Below, one piece after another: positions 1 to 63,167 of a stretch of DNA of 64,000 nt. The notes beneath the pieces are model-generated. The model ran no database searches and had not been told where the DNA came from. It was given only the letters and a program-made list of their open reading frames with translations. A program made the translations under genes and the position numbers. This DNA is from Candidatus Spongiisociaceae bacterium (lineage in GTDB: Bacteria > Actinomycetota > Acidimicrobiia > Spongiisociales > Spongiisociaceae), in assembly GCA_965219685.1 (NCBI GenBank), contig CBDCOH010000002.1, positions 896,001 through 960,000 of the forward strand, written 5' to 3'. Numbering within the stretch: the first letter of the stretch is position 1; every line of letters begins with the position of its first letter.

Positions 1-1172
1 CGGACGGGCCCGTGGCTGCCTACGTATTCAAGACATCCGGAGATCAGTACGTGGGACGTGTCAACACCTTCAGGGTCTTCTCAGGTTCGTTTACGCCCGA
101 CACGGTGGTGGAGAAGGCCGACGGGTCGAAGTTGAAGATGGCGAACCTGTTCTCCATGCAGGGCAAGGAACACTCCCCGCTGGATTCGGTGACCACCGGG
201 TCGATCGCCTCGGTGGCGAAGCTGGATGCGCTGCGGCTCGGCGACACGGTTCGCTCGGTCGGCAGCAGCGTGGAGATAGTCCCGGTCGAGGTTCCCCGAC
301 CGGTTCACGAGGTGACGGTCTCGCCCCGGTCGACGCAGGACGAGGACAAGCTGTCGACGGCTCTCGCACGCGCCCAGGAGGAGGATCCCACCATCCTCGT
401 GGATCGCAGGGCCGAGACCAAGGAGACGGTGCTGGCCGGCCTCGGCGAGGCGCATGTCGGGGTCACCCTGGCGCGGGTCTCGCGCCGCTTCGGGGTGGAC
501 CTGGACATCGGCGTGCCTCGTATCCCCTATCGCGAGACCATCCAGGGGCGGGCGGACGTCGAGGGCAAGCACAAGAAGCAGTCGGGTGGGCGCGGCCAGT
601 TCGGTGTCGCCTACGTCAAGTTCGAGCCCAACGTCCGTGGGGAGGGGTACGAGTTCGTGGACCAGATCAAGGGAGGCTCCATTCCCCGCAACCTGATACC
701 CGCCGTCGACAAGGGCATCCGCCAGGCCCTGGAACGGGGAATCCTGGCCGGTTACCCGGCGATAGACATCCGCGCCACCGTTTACGACGGGAAGTTCCAC
801 TCGGTCGACTCCGACGAGTTGAGCTTCCGCATGGCGGGGATCATGGCGGTGCGGGCCGCCGCGCCCCAGTTGCGCGCCACCATCCTCGAGCCGATCGCGG
901 TGGTCAACGTGCGTGTGCCGGAGGACTACATGGGCGATGTCCTGGGTGATATCAACGCCAAGCGGGGGCGGATCCTGGGGATGGACGCCGATGGCCGGAG
1001 CCGGGTACTGACCGCCGAGGTGCCGATGGCGGAGATGCAGCGTTACTCTGTCGACCTGAGATCGATGACGGGAGGGCGTGGATCGTTCGAGATCGAGTTC
1101 TCGCATTACGAACCGGCACCCCCCCAAGAGGTGCAGAAGGTCGTTGCGGCTGCCAAGTCGGACGACGACTAA
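1..1172 (+). CDS. Elongation factor G-like protein (EF-G2/FusA2 type), 5'-truncated by the window edge
   Basis: EF-G domains II-V: EEDPT, GLGEAH, PRIPYRET, KHKKQSGGRGQFG, DGKFHSVDSDE, LEP...GDINAKRG, LRSMTGGRG. The G-domain lies upstream of the window. No adjacent tuf/rpsG, which suggests a paralog. Confidence 0.9.
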   Translation, partial: DGPVAAYVFKTSGDQYVGRVNTFRVFSGSFTPDTVVEKADGSKLKMANLFSMQGKEHSPLDSVTTGSIASVAKLDALRLGDTVRSVGSSVEIVPVEVPRPVHEVTVSPRSTQDEDKLSTALARAQEEDPTILVDRRAETKETVLAGLGEAHVGVTLARVSRRFGVDLDIGVPRIPYRETIQGRADVEGKHKKQSGGRGQFGVAYVKFEPNVRGEGYEFVDQIKGGSIPRNLIPAVDKGIRQALERGILAGYPAIDIRATVYDGKFHSVDSDELSFRMAGIMAVRAAAPQLRATILEPIAVVNVRVPEDYMGDVLGDINAKRGRILGMDADGRSRVLTAEVPMAEMQRYSVDLRSMTGGRGSFEIEFSHYEPAPPQEVQKVVAAAKSDDD

Positions 1173-14366: not shown

Positions 14367-14414
14367 TCACCATTCACCATTCACCATTCACCATTCACCA
14401 TTCACCATTCACCA
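14367..14414 (-). repeat. Heptamer tandem repeat (TCACCAT)x~7, i.e. (ATGGTGA)n on the minus strand
   Basis: Six perfect copies plus one partial, abutting the stop codon at 14416-14418. Confidence 0.97.
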
Positions 14415-51234: not shown

Positions 51235-51403
51235 GACCGCATTATTGCGCTTCGGGCCGCCATGTACAGCCCCTCGGGGCCGCTGGATGTCCCGTTTGCC
51301 ACCGGTGACGGTCAATAGCCGGTCGGCTCCCGTATGATCGTTGTGCGCAGCGGAGTCCGCGCCCCTGACCCGAAGGGGAAACCCGACCCCCCGGAACACC
51401 GAA

Positions 51404-52156
51404 ATGATCCCAATCAGAGACATCAACCCCTCCCTCAGAACCCCGGTACTCACCTTTCTGCTGGTGGCGGGTTCGGTGGCGGTCTACTTCTTCGTCCAGC
51501 CCGGCGAGCCGGGAGCGGAGATCGAGTTCCTGTACCGCCAGGCGGCCGTGGCCTGCGAGTTGACCACCGGCGAGCCGCTGTCCCTCGACGAGATCGTCGA
51601 CGGGCGCTGTGTCGACGGAACCGAGGCGCCCCTGTATCCCGACAAGTCCCCGCTCGTCAGCGTCGTGGTGTCCATGTTCCTCCACGGCGGGCTGGCGCAC
51701 CTGGTCGCCAACATGTGGAGCCTCCTGCTGTTCGGCAACAACGTCGAGGACGCCTACGGTCGCTTCGGCTACCTGCTCCTGTATCTGGTGTCCGGCGTCG
51801 TGGCAACCGTCGGCTTCGTCGTCCTGAACCCCGACACGACGGTACCCCTCGTCGGCGCCTCCGGCGCCATCGCCGGGATCATGGGCGCGTACCTGGTCCT
51901 GTTCCCCCGCGCCAGGGTGGTGAGCGTATTCCCTCTGCTGTTCTTCATCCCGTTCACCATCTCGGCCGGGTGGTACCTGATGGTGTGGCTCGCCGGCCAG
52001 TTCGCCTTCACCGCCGCCGACTCGGCGATCGCCTGGGAGGCCCATGTAGCGGGTTTCCTGTTCGGCGTGCTGGTGACCCTGGTCGGCCGAGGTCCGCTGC
52101 TGCGCCGCTTGGCCCGGCTGGAACGCAAACGCCTGGCCCGGCTCGGGTACGGCTGA
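51404..52156 (+). CDS. Rhomboid family intramembrane serine protease
   Basis: MIPIRDINP, SMFLHGG..H...NM, FGNNVED, GASGA, AW.AHV.GF. Confidence 0.95.
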   Translation: MIPIRDINPSLRTPVLTFLLVAGSVAVYFFVQPGEPGAEIEFLYRQAAVACELTTGEPLSLDEIVDGRCVDGTEAPLYPDKSPLVSVVVSMFLHGGLAHLVANMWSLLLFGNNVEDAYGRFGYLLLYLVSGVVATVGFVVLNPDTTVPLVGASGAIAGIMGAYLVLFPRARVVSVFPLLFFIPFTISAGWYLMVWLAGQFAFTAADSAIAWEAHVAGFLFGVLVTLVGRGPLLRRLARLERKRLARLGYG

Positions 52157-52232: not shown

Positions 52233-52276
52233 ACCATTCACCATTCACCATTCACCATTCACCATTCACCATCCAC
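52233..52276 (-). repeat. Heptamer tandem repeat (ACCATTC)x~6, i.e. (ATGGTGA)n on the minus strand
   Basis: Five perfect copies plus one degenerate, abutting the stop codon at 52277-52279; same unit as 14367-14414. Confidence 0.96.
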
Positions 52277-55200
52277 CTAGAGCATTTCGTCGCTTCGGCC
52301 GTTGTCCACGGTCGTAACGGGAGGGGCGGGATCGGAGGGGGCCTCCGACGCTTCCCTGTGGAAGAGGTCTTCAGGAGTGTAGGGACCGGCCAGGTCGTGC
52401 CGGACCGACATGATCGCCAGGTCGCCGCCCGTCAGATTGCAGACATGCGACGCCTTGACGGGGACGTCGCCCGGGGGCGCGATCAGGGCTGAAGGCCACC
52501 ATAAGCTGGGCGTAAGAGAGCGGTCCGCGTCCTTGAGCGCCTCGGGTCGGAAGTAGGAGTGCGATACCTCGGACGTGGTCCGCGGCGCAACGGCGCCGAG
52601 GAAGTCCTCCAATGGTTCACCGCCCACCTCCGAGGCTTGGAGCGTCCCGCGCTGGCGATATACCCACTCGGCGGCCGCTGCCTGATCCGACTCGACCAGG
52701 GCGCGGCCCAACTCCGAGTCGTAGGTGCCAAGGCTCATATCCCGTAGGAAGCGCCAGCGCCCGCTTACGTGGGCGCGCCCGTCGGCTTCGACACTCGAGA
52801 CCTCCCGAGGATCCTGGTCGGGCCGGAGGATTCCCGTCGGATCCGAACCTACTTCGATCGCCCGTAGATGGCGGTAGGCGTCTATCGCCACGTCGTGACG
52901 CTTCCGCAGCCAGCCCGGTCGGGCGAGGCCGCTCATCATGCGAGCCCGCATGGCGGTGGCTCCCAGGCTCGTGACCCGGAAGGAGCGGTTCTCGGCCTTA
53001 CCCACTCCCAGGAGCATGTCGTAGCCGGATCGTTCGTCATCCGGCGTCCGCGAACCGAATGGCTTCCACAGCACCGTGGCCCAAGCTCCGGCCGAGGCGA
53101 CGAACTGCTCGAAAGCCTCGGCCGCGCGCCACGCCGCGTCAAGGGCTGCGACTATCCCACGTTCGAGGTCGGCGACTTTGGCCCTCTCCCGGTTATCGCG
53201 GCGGAATCCGTCGATCCCCATGGCTAGTAGCAGCAGCAGGATGACGAACAAGATTCCCGCCTCGTACCACCACAGTTCTCCGAACCCCTCTCGACGGCGG
53301 AGCCCGTACCAGCCGTTGTCACGGGCGATCAGGCCGATCAGTCCGAATACGCCGTAGACCATCGTGAAGAAGATCAGCATCCTCACCTGACGGAACGTCT
53401 CCATCGACCTGAGGGCGGGCCGGTCGAGCCGGATGGCCAGGACGACGGCGTAGTTGACCAGCGCCACCGACAACCCGAACGCGGACGCATCGTCTATGTT
53501 CGCGTCACCGGATACGAGCAGCCCGGCGAGCACTCCGGTTAGAGCAGACCAGCCGGCGATCCTGTTTAGCGCCGGTACCTCCCGCGAACGGGCTGAGGAG
53601 GGTGGGCTTGACGATGGCCCTGGATGGTCGGATCTCTCCGATGTCGGGTCGCCCTGCGCCGCTCCGGTAGCGATCGTCTCCCGATCCTCGTCGACCGTGT
53701 CGTCTTCAACCGGACCGTGCCGAGATCCGGCCGTGTCGGCAGCGGGCGTGAGTGGCCCGAACCGCAACACCACCGCCCGGGAGATCGCGGCGATCGCCAA
53801 TGCGTAGACGGCCGTGACCAGCCCCCAGGCCCAGGCGCGAGGCGTAGAGGACAGTGAGGTTATCCCCAGGACCTCCACGCCGCCGGATAGGACCAGCAGC
53901 CCCGTGATCGCCAGCACGATGAGCCCGGAGGTTACGATCGCGGTGGCGGAGAGCGCGGGAACCGGGTCGACTTCGAACACGTCGCGTGCGCGCCCGACGA
54001 GGCGTTGGAACTCCGCCCGGTTGCGGCGCTCCACTTCGCGCAGGTGAGCGCCGACGCGGCCGAGCAGCGAGGCGGGTACGCGTTTTGTCGCATCCGAGCG
54101 GATCTCCGCGGCGTGGGCGTCGATGTCGGCGGGAGCGATCAGGCCTATCTCGGTGATGACAACGTTGCGTCCCTTCAGCTGCGGCGAGGCCATGTCGCCG
54201 GGTGCCTGATCCCCGTCGACCAGCGAGAACACGGCCTTTCCGAGATCGGTCCAGATCTGTTGGTCGATTTCCACCCCGCCCTCTACCGCACGGCGTTGTC
54301 TCACCGCGGCTACCACGGTCTCGGGGTCCACGGGGTCAGCCGTGGTCCGGTCGTCACCGGACGGCATGTCCCGCCAGATGACCCGTAGGATCGAGTCCTG
54401 GCCGGCCGCGTCCTGCAGTATGCGGCCGGTGGCGTCGCGGAGCGCGGCCGTCACGTCGCTGAATACGGCGAACGTGTACCGGAGACCGCCCAGGATCCCG
54501 GCGCCCAACAGGCGGAGGGTGTCCGCCAGCCCCAGTCTGCGACGGTAACGCTCGGGTTTGTACTCGAACAGCAGGCTGTCCAGGTGGGAGACCATCCGCC
54601 GGCGGGCGTCGGTGAGGGTCTCGCCCGGGTACGGCGCCTCGGCGCAGTCCCTGGGTACCGGCGCCCGGCCTCCGTGGTTGGCGGCGGCGGCAAGCGTGAC
54701 GGCGGGGATCTCCGCTATCCGTGCGAACGAACGGGCCAGATAGACTTTGGCCTGGCCGTAGCCGATCGGGCCCCTGTCCAGGGACTCCACGGGCGCCTCT
54801 TCCATACCCGACCACATTCCGAGCGCGGTGGCCACCTCGGCCGCGATATGGGATGCGAACGTATCGGATTGCGGATCGGCGAGGGGAACACCCAACATCG
54901 CTTCGGTCCTGCGGTCCTCCGGGATGATGACCAGGTTGGCGTCCACTTCCGGCGAGAAAAACCCTTCGGGCGCCGCTAGCACTCCCCCGGCCCCGGGATC
55001 GCGTCGTGGCGACCAGATCCGTACCTCGACCACGCGCATTCCCTTGGGCTTGAGCGCCTCGATCTCGCCCGCTATGCGCTCGGCGGTCGACGACACGTAG
55101 GTAGTGCTCTCGATGTCCGGGCCGACCAGAGCCACCACGTGGACCAGTTCGAACTCCTCGCGGGCCAGTGTCTCAAACCACCGGCGGTGTTCCACTCCGT

Positions 55201-55348
55201 CCCGGCCGATGTCCATGTCGGGCCCGTCGTCGATGCAGGCGACGAAGGGTTGCACGAGACCGGCCCGCACCCACTCGGTGAGCCGTTGGACAGCGGCGGT
55301 CGTCGACTTGTCGTTGGCCGCCACGAGGAGGCTGCGGCGCGCGCTCAT
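52277..55348 (-). CDS. Large polytopic membrane protein, 1023 aa, partner of the tubulin-like protein
   Basis: ATG overlaps the tubulin-like gene TGA; soluble N-terminal region, about 6 TM segments centrally, coiled coil, soluble C-terminal region. Confidence 0.85.
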   Translation of the reverse strand: MSARRSLLVAANDKSTTAAVQRLTEWVRAGLVQPFVACIDDGPDMDIGRDGVEHRRWFETLAREEFELVHVVALVGPDIESTTYVSSTAERIAGEIEALKPKGMRVVEVRIWSPRRDPGAGGVLAAPEGFFSPEVDANLVIIPEDRRTEAMLGVPLADPQSDTFASHIAAEVATALGMWSGMEEAPVESLDRGPIGYGQAKVYLARSFARIAEIPAVTLAAAANHGGRAPVPRDCAEAPYPGETLTDARRRMVSHLDSLLFEYKPERYRRRLGLADTLRLLGAGILGGLRYTFAVFSDVTAALRDATGRILQDAAGQDSILRVIWRDMPSGDDRTTADPVDPETVVAAVRQRRAVEGGVEIDQQIWTDLGKAVFSLVDGDQAPGDMASPQLKGRNVVITEIGLIAPADIDAHAAEIRSDATKRVPASLLGRVGAHLREVERRNRAEFQRLVGRARDVFEVDPVPALSATAIVTSGLIVLAITGLLVLSGGVEVLGITSLSSTPRAWAWGLVTAVYALAIAAISRAVVLRFGPLTPAADTAGSRHGPVEDDTVDEDRETIATGAAQGDPTSERSDHPGPSSSPPSSARSREVPALNRIAGWSALTGVLAGLLVSGDANIDDASAFGLSVALVNYAVVLAIRLDRPALRSMETFRQVRMLIFFTMVYGVFGLIGLIARDNGWYGLRRREGFGELWWYEAGILFVILLLLLAMGIDGFRRDNRERAKVADLERGIVAALDAAWRAAEAFEQFVASAGAWATVLWKPFGSRTPDDERSGYDMLLGVGKAENRSFRVTSLGATAMRARMMSGLARPGWLRKRHDVAIDAYRHLRAIEVGSDPTGILRPDQDPREVSSVEADGRAHVSGRWRFLRDMSLGTYDSELGRALVESDQAAAAEWVYRQRGTLQASEVGGEPLEDFLGAVAPRTTSEVSHSYFRPEALKDADRSLTPSLWWPSALIAPPGDVPVKASHVCNLTGGDLAIMSVRHDLAGPYTPEDLFHREASEAPSDPAPPVTTVDNGRSDEML

Positions 55349-58300
55349 AACAGTTCCGGCCTTCCCGAGTCGTCACGCTCCAGGCAGAACTTGATATTGG
55401 TGAGTTCCTGAGTGACGAGGTCGGCGATCCCCAGCCACGCGATGCGGGTGCGCTGGTCACTCCCGCGATCCTCTGCGATCTGCTCGTCGTACAAGTCGAC
55501 CTGTCTTCCCAGCAACTCGATGGCGTCCCGTCTGCGAGAGCGTTCGTCCCCGCCCCTGATCACGGGACTCCTCACCCCCGCGGTGTTTCCTGTCGCCAAC
55601 CAATTGGATAAGACCCGGCTGGGCCGCGTGAAGGCCTTCAGGTCCGGTCCTCTCGCACCCGGTGATCGGCCCCACTCGACCAGGCGCGCGTAGGGCCCCA
55701 GGAACTTACCCGCGTCCTTCCGGTCGGCGGCGACCGGGAACGCGAGGCACAACCCTTCCAGCAGCGAGGCGAGGACGTTCCACGGCTGGCCCCCCACCGG
55801 CAGCGTCGGCTCGAACCGGAGAACACCGTGTTCGGTGGTGATGGCCACGGTCCGGTCCTCGATCTCGACCAGGCCCAGCATCCTGCCGATGAACCACCCC
55901 CTGATCAGGGCGCTCAACATCGGCCGAGGGATCGGAGTGGCCCTGGACAGGGCCCGCGATCGCCGGGCGTTCCAGAAGCTGACCAGATTGGACGTGTCGT
56001 GTTCCTTCCGCCAGGCGTCGGCGATGGGCTTCGTCAACGAGTCGAAGCACACGGGATGGAGGGCGCCTCCGAGCGATGTGTAGACCGCCACTCTGGTCTC
56101 CCGTTCGGACTGGTTGATCGTCTGCTCGACGGCCTCTGCGTCCCTATCGAGTTGCGGGAGGAGGTATTCACGAACGAGTGGCTCGACCGGGAGGCCGGCG
56201 ACCGGGATCGGGCTGGTCACCGGACGGATGCGCAGATCGGAGCCGGGATGTACCTGCTGGACCATCTCACGGTCGACCGAGACCAATGGCTCGGCCGCCT
56301 CGAAGGCCTTCTCCAGGCACTTCCGGAACCGTTGGTCTCGGGGAGCCCGCACCGCAGGCGGTAACGAGTCCGAGAGATAGCCCCGCAGGCCCAGCGCCAG
56401 GGTCTCTTTCCACGTCGAGCCGTCGGTGCGCAACCAGGCGCGGGCCCGGCTGAGAATGTCGTCCCGGCTGATACGCACGGTGAACGAGGCCCTCCGCGGC
56501 GCGGCGTCGCCCGCCGCGAGCCATTCCGGTGCGGACCATGCCGAATCGGGCAGCATCCAGGGCTCCATGACGCTCTGCTCGGCCTCACCGGTGATCACGG
56601 TCCGGCGGACCTTGGCCCAGGCCTCCTCGAGTCCGGTCGTTCCGGCCGAATCCATGGTGTGTTCTTCGAACAGCCGGGGGAAGTCTTCCGGATCTATGAC
56701 CAGCATGGTGCTCGCGCCGGGCTGCAGCGCGTCGGGAACGAGCCGGTCGGACGCGGGATTGTGGCGGGGCCAGTCATCGATCGGCGTTGAACCCGCTTCG
56801 CTCCTATCGGCTTCCACCGCCTGACGCAGAGCGTCGTAGGCGTGTTCGATCGCCTCGCGGAGCGGCTGGAGCACCCCGTCGCGCAGGTCCGCGAGCAGCC
56901 GGGAGGCGATGAGACGATGGTCGGCGTTGTAGGGATGCACCAGGCCGGTCTGGATCGCCTTGCCGATGGCGTTGCGGACTCCTTCGTGGTCGGCCGGGAG
57001 GGTGCCGGGACCCATTCCGATCGCGTCCAGGACGTCGGATCGCAGGTGTCCCGCCCATGCCAGTTCCTCCTGGCGCTCCGATTCGAGTTCTTCGGCCACG
57101 TGCTCCATCTCCGCGTCGGCCTTTGCCAGGAGTCGCAGCGCAACCTGCGCTCCATAGTCCGCGACGTTCGCACCCACAACCTTCACGATGCGGTCGGTGA
57201 TGTGTTCCACCCACTTCAAGGCCTCGTCCCGCAGCCGGTCGTCCAGTTTCTTCAACACGCCCGCTCGCCGGACCTCCACACCCTCCACGATGCAGTCCAC
57301 CCAGCGAAGCGCCCGGGCTTTGGAACCGACCTCCTCCGATGCTTCGTACCGGACCTGGTCCGCTACATCCCTGAAGACCGCGTCGAGTTCCGCATCCTGA
57401 AGCCCGATGGAGTCCAGAACCTGGTTGTTGTCGCGTCCCCGCTCGTTGATGCCGCATCTCCTGAGAAACCGCGTGAAGGCATCCTCTGCGAGATCCTCCA
57501 CGATCTCAGCGGTGGTGTGGTTCTCGTAGCGTCGCTGCTTCTTCGCCGCCCGTACGTAGTCACCGAGCAGGAACTCGATCGCGTCGCGGGTGATCCGCTG
57601 TTCGGCATACGTTCCGAGACGGCCCACGCCGAGGTCCACCTCGGCGAATCCGAGCGCCTGGATGGCCCCGTAGTACTTCGGCGGATCGGGCAGCATCAGT
57701 GTGTCGCCGCCAGAGGTGGGGAAACTGCCGGCGGAAGCCTGCCAGTTGGCCTTCATGTACACCGTGAAGTCGTCCTGCATGCGCCGGTCGGTCATCACTG
57801 CGGCCAGGCAGCGCGCCATGAAGCGATATGCGGCGAGTTGGTCGCCGAAGCCCACCCCTTTGGTATTCGTGTGCCCCACCAGGTAGGGGAAGGCCGGCCC
57901 GGAGCGCTGCTGGACCGCGCCGCCACCGGGTGGCGTGAACTCTCCGTCGCCGTAGTAACCGTGCAGCATCTCGGCCAGCGCCGCCGCGGTGTTCGGATAC
58001 ACGCCCCGGCTCGCCGCCTCAGACAGATCGACGAACACGTCAGCCGAATACAGGATGCCGATCGACTCGTCCATCCACGAATCTCCGTCGACCCTCAGGA
58101 TGTCGCACACATCCATCAGGATGCCTGCGCCGGTCCCGCCTGCCAGGGAGGACACGACGATCACCGCGGGCGTCGCAGCAGACTCTCCGGCCAGAGATAC
58201 GCCGTATGCCCGCTCGGCGAGTTGGCGGAGCTGTGCCATGGCGCCCGCGCTCAGCAAAGCCTGGTTCTTCATCCTGATGCGCTTCTGGATCTCGTCGGCG

Positions 58301-58677
58301 CGGAACAGGCCAAGCACGCGGCCCACCGCCCGGTACTGGCCGGCTCCGGCTTCGATGGGAATGCGCATGTAGTCGGAATCGAACAGCCAACCGCCGAAGT
58401 CGTGATCCTTGCGCTCGAGGCTGTCCACCATCGTTCTCAGGTCTATGCCCGGCCGCGCCAGTCCCAGGTACTCGTCGGCGTCCAGCAAATCAGGCCCGCC
58501 CGGAAGGACCGGTGTGTCTTGGTGGACGGGAGTGTCGATGTGGAGTAGCTGCCAACCGTCGGGCATTCCCTGGTCCCAGCCGATCTCACGGAACCGTTCT
58601 TCGAGGGTCTGCTTCAGGTAGCGCAGGGTCTTGCCACCTGAGCCGCCGAGGCCGATGATCAGGAACTGTTGCAGCAC
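55345..58677 (-). CDS. Divergent tubulin/FtsZ-like GTPase (Tubulin_2 / FtsZl1 type), 1110 aa
   Basis: FLIIGLGGSGGKT (T1), IDT, GAGQYRAVGR (T3), SSLAGGTGAG (T4 signature); SD AAGGAG before the GTG; long helical C-terminal extension. Confidence 0.9.
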   Translation of the reverse strand: MLQQFLIIGLGGSGGKTLRYLKQTLEERFREIGWDQGMPDGWQLLHIDTPVHQDTPVLPGGPDLLDADEYLGLARPGIDLRTMVDSLERKDHDFGGWLFDSDYMRIPIEAGAGQYRAVGRVLGLFRADEIQKRIRMKNQALLSAGAMAQLRQLAERAYGVSLAGESAATPAVIVVSSLAGGTGAGILMDVCDILRVDGDSWMDESIGILYSADVFVDLSEAASRGVYPNTAAALAEMLHGYYGDGEFTPPGGGAVQQRSGPAFPYLVGHTNTKGVGFGDQLAAYRFMARCLAAVMTDRRMQDDFTVYMKANWQASAGSFPTSGGDTLMLPDPPKYYGAIQALGFAEVDLGVGRLGTYAEQRITRDAIEFLLGDYVRAAKKQRRYENHTTAEIVEDLAEDAFTRFLRRCGINERGRDNNQVLDSIGLQDAELDAVFRDVADQVRYEASEEVGSKARALRWVDCIVEGVEVRRAGVLKKLDDRLRDEALKWVEHITDRIVKVVGANVADYGAQVALRLLAKADAEMEHVAEELESERQEELAWAGHLRSDVLDAIGMGPGTLPADHEGVRNAIGKAIQTGLVHPYNADHRLIASRLLADLRDGVLQPLREAIEHAYDALRQAVEADRSEAGSTPIDDWPRHNPASDRLVPDALQPGASTMLVIDPEDFPRLFEEHTMDSAGTTGLEEAWAKVRRTVITGEAEQSVMEPWMLPDSAWSAPEWLAAGDAAPRRASFTVRISRDDILSRARAWLRTDGSTWKETLALGLRGYLSDSLPPAVRAPRDQRFRKCLEKAFEAAEPLVSVDREMVQQVHPGSDLRIRPVTSPIPVAGLPVEPLVREYLLPQLDRDAEAVEQTINQSERETRVAVYTSLGGALHPVCFDSLTKPIADAWRKEHDTSNLVSFWNARRSRALSRATPIPRPMLSALIRGWFIGRMLGLVEIEDRTVAITTEHGVLRFEPTLPVGGQPWNVLASLLEGLCLAFPVAADRKDAGKFLGPYARLVEWGRSPGARGPDLKAFTRPSRVLSNWLATGNTAGVRSPVIRGGDERSRRRDAIELLGRQVDLYDEQIAEDRGSDQRTRIAWLGIADLVTQELTNIKFCLERDDSGRPELL

Positions 58678-58737
58678 GGTTGCTCTCCTTGGTTGGATCC
58701 GGATTTCCCGGGCGCGGGCTGCCGGACGCGGGTTGGT

Positions 58738-61134
58738 TCACTCATCGGGCGCCGTCTCTTCCGGCGCCGGGATACTCGCGAGCGCATCCCTGACATAGCC
58801 GGCGAACTGATCCTCGGTGGGGGTGGAAGGGTCGACCGGCGCTATCACGACCCCGTGATGCGGCGCGGGTCCCGACACGTCTATCAGGACGATGGGTTCG
58901 TGGAGCCGACGTTCCGATCGCAGGTCGGGCGACCGGTCCGAGACGTTGGTGGCATCGCGGCCCGAGCCGACCACGCCGACGAAGCGGCGCCCTGCAAGTG
59001 ACAGCCGGACGTAGGGAGGGCGCCAGGGTCGCCATGGCGTCTTACGTACAGCGCGCAGGTCACCCGCCTGGAGAGTGCTAGGCGAGTGGCGCGCTCTCCG
59101 GAGCTGGGCCTCCGACAAGTCGGACACGAGCGTCCATCCGTCCGCCACACGGAAGGTTGTGTATCGCGTGCGCCGGGGTCGCCGGATCCGACCTGCGACG
59201 CGGTTGATCCCGTAGAGCCACCCCCATATGAGCGCCAGGAGGAGGGCGAGCATCGCCGCGATGAGGATCGTCTCGACGGCCACGTTGCGTGGATGGTCGA
59301 AGCTGACGGATACCGCTAGCGGTACCTGTCGTGTCAGCCCTGCCGGGTCCGCGGGGTCGGTGACGTACGCGAACAGGAGTATGTGGTCGTCCGGTGTCTG
59401 GACCGAGCGGTCGAGACGCACGTGCAGTTCGACGGGCTCGGGGTCGCCGGAGGACCAGGCAGTTGCTCCGTCCGGGAAAGACAGTTCGATTCCGACCGGG
59501 ATCCCGTCGGTGCCCAAGATGGGATCGACCGGCAGCAGCCGTATCTCTCCTTCCCGGCCGTCGGCCTCGATGACGATGGGGATGGCGAACTCGGTGGCTT
59601 CGATGGATCCCAACGCCGGCTCGGTGACCCGGAGTATCGGTCCGTCGGGAAGATCGACCACCGTGAAGGTGACCGATGCCGTGGCGGGATCGGAGTGTTC
59701 GGATACGAGGCGGACTTCGAAGGTGTGGTCTCCCACGGCGAGTGGCGGCGACCGGAACCGTCCCGAGCCGATGCGTGGGGGCGTGATCAGCACACCGTCG
59801 AGAACGAAATCGAGAAACGGTTCGTCGACCTCGGCAAGCTGCGCCGCCCCGGTCAGGAGCGAGAAGTCGATGGGTGTGTCAGGAAATATCGGGCTGGTCT
59901 CGATCCGGATGGAGAGGGTCGGAACTTCGAGGACGACGGAGCCACAGACCTCCTCGACTCCTTCACCATGGACCTCGGTCGAGGTGTAAGGAACCTCGGA
60001 ATAGTCGAGAACGATCCGGCGGGCTCGGTCGCCGTCCTCGAGACGGTGAGCGGGATGGTTGGTGGACAGTTCCGGGGAGTCGCCCTCCGCTACCACCACC
60101 GCGGATCGGACGAACGCCGGAGCGATCCCGTCCGGCAGTCTCCCGTCCCACAGGATGCCGTCGTGGGAGGCGACGGTGAGCCAGGGCCCGGAGAGGTCTT
60201 CGCAGGCCCGCGATGGGGGCATGGTGGTGGTCGTGGCCACGGTCGTAGTAGTGGTCGGGAGGGTCGTGGTGGTTGGCGTAGTCGTTGTGGGAGGTGGCGG
60301 CGGCTCTACGAACTTGAACTCCGGCTGTGTGGTCGTCTGCAGGGCGATGTGATCCCCGCAACGGCCCTGCTCCATCATTTCGAGAAGGGTCTTGGTATCG
60401 CCGGATGGAGGGTCCCCCACGTAGAAGAGACGGATGTCGATGCGGGCCCCGAGTTGCGCGAGACGACCCGAGAGGTTCTCGTAGCCAGGTGCGACTGTGC
60501 TTTCCCGGGACTCGTCGCCGCAAACCGCGGGGATCAGGAGATCTGCGACATCGTTGCCGATCCGCCGGCTGGTGAGCGGGCGTTCCAGGCCGTCGTAGGG
60601 TCGAGGTGTCCGGTCACCCCTATGAGCATCGCTGAGATCGTGAAGTCCGTCGGTCAACCACACGACCCGATGGCAGTCGGCTGACCAATCGAGATCGAGC
60701 AGTCCGTATAGGGCGGACACGTAGTCGGTGTTCAGGTCGTGGTCACCGAACCGTTCGATCGTGGACACCACGTCGTCGTTGCCGCTCGCCTTGAGGTCGG
60801 TGAACTCGCGACGCAGTTCGAAATCGGTGCCGAAGGTGGCCAATCCGAGGCGGACCCGCAGTCCCGCCTCCACGGACCTCTCGAGGGAGGCCACGTAACG
60901 CTTGGCGGCGGCGATCCGCTGGCCGTCCGGGTCGTTGGTACGCAGGGACTGGGACTCGTCCATCAGTATCAAAACGTCCCACGACCGCGCCTCGGGAGGG
61001 CAGAACGCGTCCGCTCTCACAGGATCCTGATCCTGACCTCCGGAGGGAACGGCGACCATGGTGCTAGTCGTCACGGCGATGAGAACGGAGATGGTGAAGA
61101 CAATCGGGCGACCGGGACGGGCCGCCTGGTTCAC
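58738..61134 (-). CDS. Exported, membrane-anchored vWA domain protein
   Basis: Signal-like N-terminus; MIDAS DESQS...NTDY...LTDG; Pro/Thr linker; beta-rich domains; TM near aa 620; basic cytoplasmic tail; GTG overlaps the upstream TGA. Confidence 0.88.
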   Translation of the reverse strand: MNQAARPGRPIVFTISVLIAVTTSTMVAVPSGGQDQDPVRADAFCPPEARSWDVLILMDESQSLRTNDPDGQRIAAAKRYVASLERSVEAGLRVRLGLATFGTDFELRREFTDLKASGNDDVVSTIERFGDHDLNTDYVSALYGLLDLDWSADCHRVVWLTDGLHDLSDAHRGDRTPRPYDGLERPLTSRRIGNDVADLLIPAVCGDESRESTVAPGYENLSGRLAQLGARIDIRLFYVGDPPSGDTKTLLEMMEQGRCGDHIALQTTTQPEFKFVEPPPPPTTTTPTTTTLPTTTTTVATTTTMPPSRACEDLSGPWLTVASHDGILWDGRLPDGIAPAFVRSAVVVAEGDSPELSTNHPAHRLEDGDRARRIVLDYSEVPYTSTEVHGEGVEEVCGSVVLEVPTLSIRIETSPIFPDTPIDFSLLTGAAQLAEVDEPFLDFVLDGVLITPPRIGSGRFRSPPLAVGDHTFEVRLVSEHSDPATASVTFTVVDLPDGPILRVTEPALGSIEATEFAIPIVIEADGREGEIRLLPVDPILGTDGIPVGIELSFPDGATAWSSGDPEPVELHVRLDRSVQTPDDHILLFAYVTDPADPAGLTRQVPLAVSVSFDHPRNVAVETILIAAMLALLLALIWGWLYGINRVAGRIRRPRRTRYTTFRVADGWTLVSDLSEAQLRRARHSPSTLQAGDLRAVRKTPWRPWRPPYVRLSLAGRRFVGVVGSGRDATNVSDRSPDLRSERRLHEPIVLIDVSGPAPHHGVVIAPVDPSTPTEDQFAGYVRDALASIPAPEETAPDE

Positions 61135-61547
61135 AACGGCCACTCTCTGGCGATCCGGACGGCGATGAGGTAGCCGCAGAGAAGGGCTCCCACGACTGAT
61201 GCGAGGAGGGACAGCCTGGCCAGGATGGTGGGTCTCCACCACCGTTCCTGCCACCTCGTCCGCTCGCGGAACCTTCCCAACTGGAACAGGGCGAAGCCCG
61301 GGAGCGAGAAGACGAGGACCGCCAAGATCCCGCCGGTTGCTCGCTGGAACGCCTGGTCACCGACTCTTCCGACCTCGTCGGCGGTCAGGGCTGCGGCTAC
61401 AGCCATAGAGGTACCGAGCAACGACACCAGGAGCCACAAGACCCATCGCGCGCCTCGCGGTGGCCGACGGTGAAGGTTCCTTCGCGGGTTTCTGGATCCG
61501 GCCTCCCGCTGCCTGGATCGCGGGTCGGACTCGAACCTATAGCTCAT
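61131..61547 (-). CDS. Small membrane protein (3 TM), first gene of the vWA-tubulin operon
   Basis: Three hydrophobic segments; stop overlaps the vWA start. Confidence 0.7.
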   Translation of the reverse strand: MSYRFESDPRSRQREAGSRNPRRNLHRRPPRGARWVLWLLVSLLGTSMAVAAALTADEVGRVGDQAFQRATGGILAVLVFSLPGFALFQLGRFRERTRWQERWWRPTILARLSLLASVVGALLCGYLIAVRIAREWPL

Positions 61548-61679
61548 GGCAGGTGGAGTTCCTGCGGTTGCTTCGCTGATGTAGTCACCGGAGTCGGCAC
61601 TGATATGTAGGTCTGTTCACCCTAGCCAGATTTGTAATTCGCGACACTCTACTCCCGGTGGGGGGTGACCACAACCGCG

Positions 61680-61800
61680 TTCCGGCTGGCTCGGTGGCCG
61701 GTGATTCTGGTTGGTCTGTGGCTGGTGGCCCGGGGTCACTCTGGGAAAGACCTGACCGCCGACAACTTTGCCGAGCCGTTGCCTGGTACCTGGCGCCTCG
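61680..61800 (+). repeat. Degenerate heptamer-like repeats at the right border of the tubulin cluster
   Basis: TGG/GGT-periodic tract ending CTGGTGGCCCGG (61722-61733, identical to 10700-10711), then gcctggt acctggc gcctcgt. Confidence 0.45.
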
Positions 61801-61805
61801 TAAGG

Positions 61806-63167
61806 TCAGCTGTCGGCGCGCGCGGGGAGGCGTTGGATGATCACGTCCAGCAGCTCTGCGGTCAGTCCGAGCGAACGAACCCCGATGCGTTCGTCGTTGC
61901 CGTGGAACATGCCCAGGAAGTCGCTGAACGGCACCCGGTCGTCGAAGAGGCCTACGCCGTAGGCCTTGACTCCCTTGGCCCGGAAGAAGCGGGCGTCGGT
62001 CGTGGCCGGTGTCATCGCCGGCACGACCCTCCGGCTCCCGGTCAGCGACTCGTAGGCGTCTCCGATCGCCTCCCAGAGTGGTCCCTCGGCGGCCGATGAG
62101 TTGGCCGGGTAATGGATCACCTTCTCTACGTCGACCTCGTCGTAGAGGGGTCCGAGCACCTTGCGGAGGTGGTCCTCCACGACCTGCTCCGTCTGGCCGG
62201 GCAGGACTCTCATGTCGAGCGTCGTGTCGGCCCGGTCGGCGACGGTGTTGGCCTTGGCTCCCCCGCTGACCAGGTTAGGACTGAGGGTCAGGTGGGTGCA
62301 GGCATGAACCCAGCGCGCCAGCAACGGATCCTCCACCGCCATCCGATCGATCTCGAAGTCGATCCGGTCGGGATCGAGGAGGGCGGCTACGCGTTCGGCG
62401 TCCCATCCGATCCCCTCCACGAACATGCGCCACTCGGGTGTCAACTCGACGGGGCTACCGGAGCCGGCGAGGGCGACGATGGCTTCGGCCACCTTGACCA
62501 CCGCGTTGTCCGTCCCGTAGGGCTGGCTGCCATGCGACGGGACCCCCGCACCGTGTAGGATCCTCCAGCAGGGTCCCTTCTCGGCGACCTTCACCGGATG
62601 GACGGGGGGTCGGCCGGGCTCGCGGACGGACGGGTAGGCGATCTCGGTCAGGACGTAGTCGCACTCGAGCATCTCCGGCCGGTTGTCCATGATCCAGCCC
62701 GCCCCGAGCCCGCCTCCCTGCTCCTCGTCCGCCACCCCCAGATACAGCAGATCACCCGCTGGCCGGCGGTTCCCCAGCAGGTAGGGCTTGAACACCACCG
62801 CCATGGCGGCGGTCACGTTAAGCATGTCGACTGCTCCGCGGCCCCACACCATTCCGTCCACGACCTCCGCCCCGAACGGGTCGACCGACCATCCCTCCTC
62901 GGTTACCGGCACCACATCGAGGTGTCCCATCAGCAGGAGGGCCGGCGCACCGGGGTCGGTACCCGGGACCCGGTAGACGATGCTCTGGCGCCCCGGCGCA
63001 GGCTCCATCACCTCGCCGGAGACGCCGAAGTACTCCTCGAGGGTCGCCACCGACCTTGCCTCGTGGCCGGACTGGGGCGTCCCGTCGTTCACGCAGCGGT
63101 TCCGGATGAGGGCTTGAAGGAGTTCGAGCACCTCGCCCTGCCTGCTCGTGATCGCGGCGTCGCTCAT
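61806..63167 (-). CDS. M20/M25/M40 family metallohydrolase
   Basis: MGHLDVVP, WGRGAVDML, ADEE, TDARF, FHGNDE. Confidence 0.93.
   Translation of the reverse strand: MSDAAITSRQGEVLELLQALIRNRCVNDGTPQSGHEARSVATLEEYFGVSGEVMEPAPGRQSIVYRVPGTDPGAPALLLMGHLDVVPVTEEGWSVDPFGAEVVDGMVWGRGAVDMLNVTAAMAVVFKPYLLGNRRPAGDLLYLGVADEEQGGGLGAGWIMDNRPEMLECDYVLTEIAYPSVREPGRPPVHPVKVAEKGPCWRILHGAGVPSHGSQPYGTDNAVVKVAEAIVALAGSGSPVELTPEWRMFVEGIGWDAERVAALLDPDRIDFEIDRMAVEDPLLARWVHACTHLTLSPNLVSGGAKANTVADRADTTLDMRVLPGQTEQVVEDHLRKVLGPLYDEVDVEKVIHYPANSSAAEGPLWEAIGDAYESLTGSRRVVPAMTPATTDARFFRAKGVKAYGVGLFDDRVPFSDFLGMFHGNDERIGVRSLGLTAELLDVIIQRLPARADS

Follow-up and report, generated by a model that had tools for sequence, protein, structure and literature searches.

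The DNA analyzed here is a window of 64,000 nucleotides from contig CBDCOH010000002.1 of a Candidatus Spongiisociaceae bacterium (assembly GCA_965219685.1), an organism known from metagenome bins only, and the element under study is a cassette on the minus strand of this window at 52277-61547. Four co-oriented open reading frames (ORFs) of 138, 798 (longest frame 838), 1110 and 1023 codons make up the cassette. The operon is real, conserved and accessory, and it belongs to the known FtsZl1-vWA type, reduced to a four-gene core in which the fourth protein is a predicted partner of the tubulin-like GTPase in the membrane. The genes and the spacer in front of them are as follows.

61131..61547, minus strand: gene 1, membrane protein of 138 aa (ORF and translation, hydropathy)
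58738..61134, minus strand: gene 2, 798-aa vWA membrane protein when started at the GTG at 61134 (VWA_2, PF13519)
55345..58677, minus strand: gene 3, FtsZl1 (Tubulin_2) GTPase of 1110 aa, cytoplasmic (PF13809)
52277..55348, minus strand: gene 4, membrane protein of 1023 aa, candidate membrane-embedded pseudo-tubulin (no Pfam family)
61548..61805, minus strand: upstream spacer from the M20 stop to gene 1, presumed promoter region (sequence)

The compact arrangement described in the first-pass annotation was borne out by the sequence and the ORF coordinates. The tetranucleotide GTGA at 61131-61134, read in the sequence, is common to the stop of gene 1 and the GTG start of gene 2, the stop of gene 3 and the ATG of gene 4 overlap at 55345-55348, and genes 2 and 3 are separated by 60 bp (58678-58737). 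The longest frame of gene 2 spans 58738-61254 (838 aa), and a database protein of 801 aa, which is the window's own gene 2 product, implies a start 9 nt further upstream (61143) that would likewise overlap gene 1. The cassette is flanked on one side by a convergent rhomboid gene (51341-52156, plus strand; PF01694, E 3.7e-31) and on the other by an M20 peptidase gene (61806-63167, minus strand) followed by a NUDIX gene. The rhomboid was rejected as a functional partner because it is convergent and already adjoins M20 at sites where the cassette is absent. A scan of the operon strand for sigma-70-like consensus sequences gave no site in the upstream spacer, and a terminator scan gave two terminator-like sites, neither bounding the cassette; the counts were at or below chance in both scans.

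Hidden Markov model (HMM) searches matched both families that had been named for the cassette, Tubulin_2 (PF13809) and vWA. No Pfam family was obtained for genes 1 and 4, and NCBIfam added nothing more above cut-off for the four cassette proteins. In agreement with the earlier statement that this version has no kinase, FHA or small-GTPase gene, no Pfam or NCBIfam match to a kinase, FHA, small GTPase, P-loop GTPase or OmpA was found in the four genes, and the flanking genes of the window were also without a kinase, GTPase or OmpA by Pfam.

The product of gene 3 was matched by PF13809 with an E value of 2e-42 and 146.1 bits against a cut-off of 27, the match covering residues 6-367 and profile positions 1-355 of 356, and the same model retrieved it in a search of the whole genome, which establishes its FtsZl1/Tubulin_2 identity. 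Among the control genomes, Corynebacterium glutamicum and Deinococcus radiodurans were matched by this model as well. A canonical tubulin/FtsZ gene (PF00091) is present elsewhere in the genome, in agreement with the view that gene 3 is not the division FtsZ. Hydropathy analysis showed no transmembrane segment in this protein, the glycine-rich loop aside, and five to six in the product of gene 4, which supports the proposed pairing of a cytoplasmic GTPase with a polytopic fourth protein. The nucleotide-binding loops, named T1, T3 and T4 as in FtsZ, are intact: G-L-G-G-S-G-G-K-T at residues 9-17 (T1), G-A-G (T3) and G-G-T-G-A-G (T4), the last within the signature loop S-L-A-G-G-T-G-A-G at residues 177-185. 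Residues G9, G11, G12, S13, G14, G15, T17, G111, A112, G113, G180, G181, G183 and G185 were invariant in all 60 aligned sequences. The FtsZl1 relatives are 1009-1197 aa long.

The structure model of FtsZl1 was confident (predicted local distance difference test score, pLDDT, 89.6; predicted template modeling score, pTM, 0.81). A Foldseek search with this model returned 24 rows at E ≤ 0.001, all of them FtsZ, CetZ or gamma-tubulin, and VIA-align gave 276-362 aligned residues over the ranges 2..897 (CetZ/FtsZ/TubZ) and 2..987 (tubulins); the two comparisons agree on the tubulin fold that had been expected for this protein. The structural ranges end at 873-899 (FtsZ, CetZ, TubZ, PhuZ) or at 981-987 (tubulins), and not near residue 380. 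In the model, helices occupy residues 389-624 and strands residues 817-954, and the C-terminal part is mixed and then helical. A T7-like loop, E-P-L-V-x-x-D, precedes the region of the strands, with P797 and L798 kept in 60/60 sequences and D802 in 54/60. These range ends, strands and conserved residues together suggest a second tubulin domain beyond the insertion; the FtsZl1 of the model would have both domains of a complete tubulin fold, with about 400 helical residues apparently inserted between them. VIA-align reports the first and last aligned residue only, so that the domain borders given here are approximate and deduced.

57538..58677, minus strand: FtsZl1 nucleotide-binding domain, residues 1-380, with intact T1/T3/T4 loops
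residues 380-795, minus strand: long helical insertion of FtsZl1 (structure model)
55708..56295, minus strand: predicted second (activation) domain of FtsZl1, residues ~795-990 (VIA-align ranges, model strands)

In the product of gene 4, about 460 soluble residues are followed by a membrane region (462-717) and then by about 300 further soluble residues. Its structure model (pLDDT 83.1, pTM 0.68) contains helices at 468-487, 501-530, 594-615, 618-641, 649-674 and 690-761, which are the six of the membrane region, a disordered loop at 533-590 with pLDDT below 50, and strands at 785-792, 946-951, 964-967 and 977-990. When this model was aligned by VIA-align, the ranges ran from residue 3 to 1004-1013 with 220-272 aligned residues, and the best 12 of 48,161 chains all belonged to the tubulin superfamily, with ranges covering the C-terminal 230 residues; dehydrogenases aligned with just 124-176 residues. 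Both the FtsZl1 and the gene 4 model have BtubA and gamma-tubulin among their structural matches. Among language-model features of gene 4, the nearest named clusters carry Tubulin_2 with scores of 0.77, 0.80 and 0.78, which are to be taken as leads only. The structural alignments thus place the N- and C-terminal parts in one predicted tubulin-like head, and the predicted layout mirrors that of FtsZl1 (N part, long insertion, C part), the insertion of gene 4 being formed by six membrane helices.

54554..55348, minus strand: Rossmann-like N-terminal part of the predicted gene 4 head, residues 1-265 (model secondary structure)
53198..53965, minus strand: gene 4 membrane region, residues 462-717 (hydropathy, model)
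52334..53011, minus strand: alpha/beta C-terminal part of gene 4, residues ~780-1005 (VIA-align ranges, strands)

No glycine-rich loop is found in gene 4. A conserved sequence, A-N-L-V-x-x-P-E-D-R, stands at what would be, by our placement, the T4 position, with N138 kept in 58/65, P143 in 62/65, D145 in 65/65 and R146 in 53/65 sequences; in the C-terminal part K784 is kept in 63/65, and W813, P843, R864 and P952 are invariant. A faint likeness to a P-loop in the N-terminus (A-N-D-K-S-T) is not kept in orthologues and was discarded. Taken together, the models make it probable that gene 4 encodes a membrane-embedded, GTP-blind pseudo-tubulin. As a separate feature, the last residue of the gene 4 proteins, behind a variable acidic tail, is a leucine in 9/9 aligned orthologues (52277-52282 in the window).

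Gene 2 was matched by VWA_2 (PF13519, E 9.2e-8), and Pfam reported no FNIII domain in it. In the numbering of the 838-aa frame its transmembrane segments lie at 50-71 and 655-684, and the order of its parts is a signal/anchor, a vWA domain with a metal ion-dependent adhesion site (MIDAS), a Pro/Thr linker, a beta-rich ectodomain, one transmembrane helix, the basic stretch R-I-R-R-P-R-R and a conserved tail of about 150 residues. From this order and the topology rules, the vWA domain would face outward and the tail would be cytoplasmic. The five MIDAS residues (D99, S101, S103, T176 and D202, same numbering) are complete and invariant in 10/10 aligned sequences, as are several cysteines, which upholds the earlier description of an outward-facing vWA protein with a MIDAS. 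In three relatives the Pro/Thr linker is swapped for a duplicated beta-rich module. The alignment of the tail is shallow (10 rows) because a word-based search with the tail gave only two proteins. The ratio of nonsynonymous to synonymous substitution rates (dN/dS) was 0.20 for the outside part versus 0.19 for the tail, with no sign of diversifying selection on the ectodomain. At one close locus the vWA gene is in two ORFs, either a break or an assembly error.

Gene 1 encodes a protein with three predicted transmembrane helices (35-57, 70-93 and 106-134 by hydropathy) and a predicted cytoplasmic N-terminus, which begins M-S-Y-R-F-E-S-D-P and is arginine-rich, with 11 Lys plus Arg in residues 1-34. 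In the alignment its homologues open with M-x-F-E-F-[ED]-Y, the version of the window being M-S-Y-R-F-E-S. A search for the motif [FYW][EDQ]F[ED][FYLSW] in six-frame ORFs of at least 60 aa from 16 loci gave 13 matches, all at N-termini: seven in gene 1 homologues and six in the trypsin-like proteins encoded by a fifth gene of sister cassettes. In a clade of soil-type relatives the N-terminal motif is N-V-P-I-P-G-G instead of the F-E-F-E-Y type. We read the N-terminal peptides shared by gene 1 and the trypsin-like proteins, from their sequences, as putative docking peptides.

FtsZl1 relatives were found in 9/24 other genomes of the same family, in 0/16 genomes from other families of the order and in 7/150 other genomes of the class. 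In 8/8 close loci the four genes keep their collinear order. A pattern search with the gene 4 family gave 29 loci in species-representative genomes, nine of which were already in the comparison set; by local HMMs FtsZl1 stands directly upstream of gene 4 in all 29, and the order gene 1, vWA, FtsZl1, gene 4 is kept in 24/24 loci with enough upstream DNA, the remaining five being cut by contig ends. The four genes proposed as a unit are therefore conserved together at the close loci and across the wider set. Compared by a Nei-Gojobori script with the closest genome that carries the same insertion, genes 1-4 gave dN/dS values of 0.29, 0.22, 0.14 and 0.20 with synonymous divergence (dS) of 0.67-0.80, and the flanking M20 and NUDIX genes gave dN/dS of 0.14 and 0.08 with dS of 0.82 and 1.2. 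Purifying selection thus acts on each of the four genes (dN/dS 0.14-0.29), and, with dS values near those of the neighboring genes, the cassette has diverged along with its surroundings.

Some irregular copies were met in this survey. In the closest relative (G007, L021/L039, 96% identity) FtsZl1 is in two frames with one TGA inside the match, a pseudogene or an assembly error. A same-genus genome (G006) holds a second, far more divergent cassette (L020, C1:2541400-2556500) with a 1134-aa vWA protein, Tubulin_2 as two ORFs (376 and 888 aa) and a 908-aa gene 4 relative (local HMM E 3.9e-14). Two bins whose titles name different phyla, Acidimicrobiia and Chloroflexi (L048 and L049), have identical FtsZl1 rows and matching cassettes; an error in one of the labels or bins is probable. 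An ORF with DUF6884 and DUF7662 stands after gene 4 in a cassette that comes from another family of the order (G107, L034:2-2206:-), and it was not seen at the other loci examined.

The position of the cassette between the rhomboid and the M20 peptidase was read as an insertion in the first-pass annotation, and the related genomes agree: in 4/4 same-genus genomes examined the two flanking genes lie 173-1035 bp apart with no cassette between them, and three of these four hold a cassette elsewhere. In G005 the spacer carries a PIN and ribbon-helix-helix toxin-antitoxin pair (L026:7944-8563), in G006 a shorter stretch resembling part of the G005 sequence (L027), and in G007 a 404-aa ankyrin-repeat ORF lies between the rhomboid and the cassette (L021:1683-2897). 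The rhomboid-M20 spacer is thus a variable chromosomal site. A tree was made from 22 full-length FtsZl1 rows, without seven of the 29 loci, whose FtsZl1 ORFs are short or split. In this tree the window pairs with the relative that has the cassette at the same site (100/100), and the pair is sister to six cassettes at other loci that carry a fifth gene; one marine bin and a clade of 13 rows under soil-type record titles form the outgroups. The operon of the window is single-copy and horizontally inserted. Because the two cassette lineages, at different loci in one genus, show 57-59% identity in FtsZl1 versus 71-81% in the flanking housekeeping proteins, the cassette is accessory and has moved or been differentially lost.

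The fifth gene of the sister lineage encodes a Trypsin_2 peptidase that has one transmembrane helix and in whose sequence His, Asp and Ser motifs can be recognized. It follows gene 4 on the same strand in 6/6 sister-lineage loci, which are 6/29 loci overall; no close copy was found in the window's genome (best E 1.6e-7), and in one sister genome the gene is duplicated (L017:12748-15264). In the soil clade a Beta_propel (PF09826) lipoprotein follows gene 4 in five loci, two of which were scanned. The possibility that the window cassette is a version that lost the protease was rejected, as the fifth gene is limited to the sister clade and is not in the outgroups; a gain in the sister clade is the simpler reading. 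Because the outgroups are without the protease, the four-gene form of the window looks like the plain conserved core.

The heptamer repeats said to border the cassette on both sides proved to be a single array at 52233-52277 (ACCATTC, 6.4 units by Tandem Repeats Finder); the upstream spacer at 61548-61805 has no period-7 signal (0.29 versus 0.97 for the array). A three-unit pattern of the heptamer GGTGAAT/ATTCACC, with at most two mismatches, gave 428 + 411 matches genome-wide versus 0 + 0 for the control, and a second array lies within the window at 14372-14413. Some arrays elsewhere in the genome are more than 20 units long. Since the repeat is genome-wide and the array is absent from the same junction in two genomes sharing the insertion, it was rejected as a cassette border or attachment site.

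From these results it appears just about probable that a membrane-fixed pseudo-tubulin partners a GTP-driven assembly of FtsZl1, coupled to an outward vWA receptor. The pseudo-tubulin head of gene 4, lying under the membrane, would serve the GTP-dependent assembly of FtsZl1 as a fixed partner, cap or nucleator; the vWA protein would bind an extracellular ligand via its metal site and couple to that assembly via its conserved cytoplasmic tail; and the three-helix product of gene 1 would dock via its N-terminal acidic-aromatic peptide. FtsZl1 would in this way be anchored by the polytopic protein, and the vWA protein would signal to the GTPase. Such a system may act locally on the membrane or envelope, or may respond to an event at the surface in the manner of a switch. 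In a more specific form of the model, which is rather improbable, FtsZl1 and gene 4 would be an active/inactive tubulin-like pair: the member built into the membrane, comparable to gamma- or alpha-tubulin, would seed a GTP-driven polymer of FtsZl1 that grows or collapses upon binding of ligand to vWA.

Several results weigh against the proposed mechanism. Comparison of the gene 4 and FtsZl1 families by hhalign gave a probability of 0.1% for the whole proteins and 0.2-0.6% for the N and C parts, and at E ≤ 0.5 no tubulin model of Pfam was matched by any of 45 gene 4 family members (0/45); homology of gene 4 to FtsZl1 at the sequence level is accordingly unsupported. Foldseek with the gene 4 model gave no row at E ≤ 0.001, the best being Rab, G-alpha and DJ-1 at E ~0.09-0.2. 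The loop between transmembrane helices 5 and 6 of gene 4 has four Lys plus Arg, a poor fit to a six-helix topology with both termini inside. The predicted split fold was read from ranges, aligned lengths and secondary structure only. No effector domain is recognizable in the four-gene core. A complex prediction in which the two cytoplasmic parts of gene 4 (1-460 and 720-1023) were paired with residues 685-838 of gene 2, the vWA tail, gave no answer (score 0.00 against a mark of 0.32), which speaks neither for nor against a contact.

These negative comparisons are what would be expected if gene 4 were no tubulin relative and encoded a lineage-specific membrane scaffold or transporter, with a Rossmann-like N-terminal domain that merely resembles tubulin and with FtsZl1 reaching the membrane otherwise; the weak Foldseek rows to small GTPases and DJ-1 point the same way. 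Against this, the ranges of the tubulin-superfamily alignments take in the C-terminal 230 residues as well. This, the excess in aligned length of the 12 best chains over the dehydrogenases, the same order of N part, insertion and C part in the FtsZl1 model, and the position of gene 4 behind FtsZl1 at every one of the 29 loci make this explanation unlikely, if still one to be taken seriously.

A further alternative concerns the role of the cassette and not the mechanism of assembly. The operon would be an anti-phage or anti-invader conflict system, of the sort put forward by Kaur et al. in 2020 for tubulin-vWA neighborhoods, in which NTP-dependent assembly acts as a threshold switch with a surface or envelope trigger, leading to growth arrest or membrane damage. 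The patchy spread (9/24, 0/16 and 7/150 genomes at the three ranks), the variable insertion site with its toxin-antitoxin pair in a sister genome, the two lineages whose FtsZl1 proteins differ more than their flanks, one copy that appears broken and the published grouping in section 29 of PMC7159879 are all consistent with such a role. Against it, 0/4 cassette proteins matched a model of PADLOC-DB 2.0.0 at E ≤ 0.1, so that the anti-phage role listed among the candidates of the first-pass annotation did not gain from this search; the GTPase and GAP1 components by which the published system is defined are missing from the cassette, which also has no recognizable effector; the ectodomain gave no sign of diversifying selection, and the other neighbors at the locus are housekeeping genes. 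On balance a conflict role appears rather improbable. That the cassette is a host-adhesion module of sponge-associated bacteria, its vWA ectodomain binding host matrix and its cytoplasmic proteins merely organizing it, is very unlikely: the closest loci are titled Candidatus Spongiisociaceae and other Acidimicrobiia metagenome bins, and an ankyrin-repeat gene adjoins the cassette in one sister genome, but the same four-gene core occurs in the 13-row FtsZl1 clade, whose titles indicate soil and other bins not from sponges, the cassette is carried by no more than 9/24 genomes of the sponge-associated family, and no link was found between the ectodomain and a host ligand.

FtsZl1-vWA operons are widespread and have been predicted computationally since 2010, and the present locus is a clean natural minimal version of four genes, without kinase, GTPase or protease. 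If both structural predictions hold, namely the complete but interrupted tubulin fold of FtsZl1 and the GTP-blind copy embedded in the membrane beside it, they give a concrete wiring plan that can be tested, in which a GTPase subunit works with a dead subunit fixed in the membrane, a vWA receptor that spans the membrane and has a folded tail, and accessory proteins tagged with peptides. An active/inactive pair, if true, would be a bacterial counterpart of the coupling of integrins to the cytoskeleton, and the tubulin fold would tolerate an insertion of 400-500 residues, a coiled coil or a membrane domain, between its halves. The empty sites, the sister cassette with a protease and the soil clade with a beta-propeller lipoprotein are natural comparison sets.

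The operon type itself is not new. Makarova and Koonin (2010; Biol Direct 5:33, PMC2875224) defined FtsZl1 and vWA operons and proposed membrane remodeling, found no FtsZl1 counterpart for T6-H7 or the C-terminal domain of FtsZ/tubulin, and described kinase, P-loop GTPase and OmpA genes as frequent and not obligatory. Kaur et al. (2020; eLife 9:e52696, PMC7159879), in section 29, placed tubulin-vWA neighborhoods of Firmicutes and Actinobacteria among GTPase-centered conflict systems, with two tubulin genes in Firmicutes and a single one in Actinobacteria. The assignment to a known type made in the first-pass annotation thus stands with respect to the prediction of 2010, but it had missed the description of 2020. 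The portion of Santana-Molina et al. (2023) that deals with Tubulin_2 proteins uses them as an outgroup only. Literature searches, with most subscription journals outside their scope, returned no experimental study of the FtsZl1-vWA family, as had been stated before, and no paper on a membrane-embedded dead partner.

With the operons described in PMC2875224 the window cassette shares a giant FtsZl1 (about 1000-1100 aa in this type) whose N-terminal domain is tubulin-like and whose middle, long and helical or coiled-coil, leads to an alpha-helical C-terminal region; a neighboring vWA gene, here ending 60 bp before FtsZl1, that encodes signal/transmembrane segments and has its MIDAS intact; and lineage-specific membrane partners, a conventional FtsZ elsewhere and a proposed membrane-associated complex. 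It differs in having no Ser/Thr kinase, diverged P-loop GTPase or OmpA gene, and the models obtained here suggest that the second domain of FtsZl1 is present after the long insertion. With the actinobacterial theme of PMC7159879, as set out in section 29, it has in common a single tubulin gene, fused to an uncharacterized C-terminal region of alpha-helices, and a vWA protein bound to the membrane whose ectodomain is rich in beta-strands; the setting near the membrane and the idea of regulated NTP-dependent assembly are likewise common to both. The differences are that the defining components, GTPase(s) bearing N-terminal zinc ribbons, GAP1 and an FNIII-HRDC protein, are missing (in the cassette only, GAP1 not having been searched genome-wide), and that a second, cryptic tubulin-like protein is predicted beside FtsZl1. 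The HRDC domain seen in soil relatives belongs to a UvrD helicase and not to an FNIII-HRDC protein. What is added here to the operon type is the interrupted two-domain fold that the model suggests for FtsZl1 and, from sequence comparison, an N-terminal peptide motif common to two membrane partners in sister cassettes.

Active and inactive tubulins paired with each other, and nucleators of tubulin, are known from alpha/beta-tubulin, BtubA/B and gamma-tubulin, to which the cassette can be compared by analogy only. As in those cases, two predicted tubulin-fold proteins would stand side by side, one of them without a working catalytic or nucleotide site; unlike them, gene 4 is devoid of nucleotide loops, is predicted to cross the membrane six times and has no sequence similarity to its neighbor. 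FtsZ is tethered to the membrane by FtsA and ZipA via a short terminal peptide, again an analogy only. The likeness would lie in short conserved terminal peptides on disordered, charged linkers near the membrane, in gene 1 and in the protease of the sister cassettes; here, however, the peptide is carried by the membrane proteins and not by the tubulin-like one, and its motif differs by clade.

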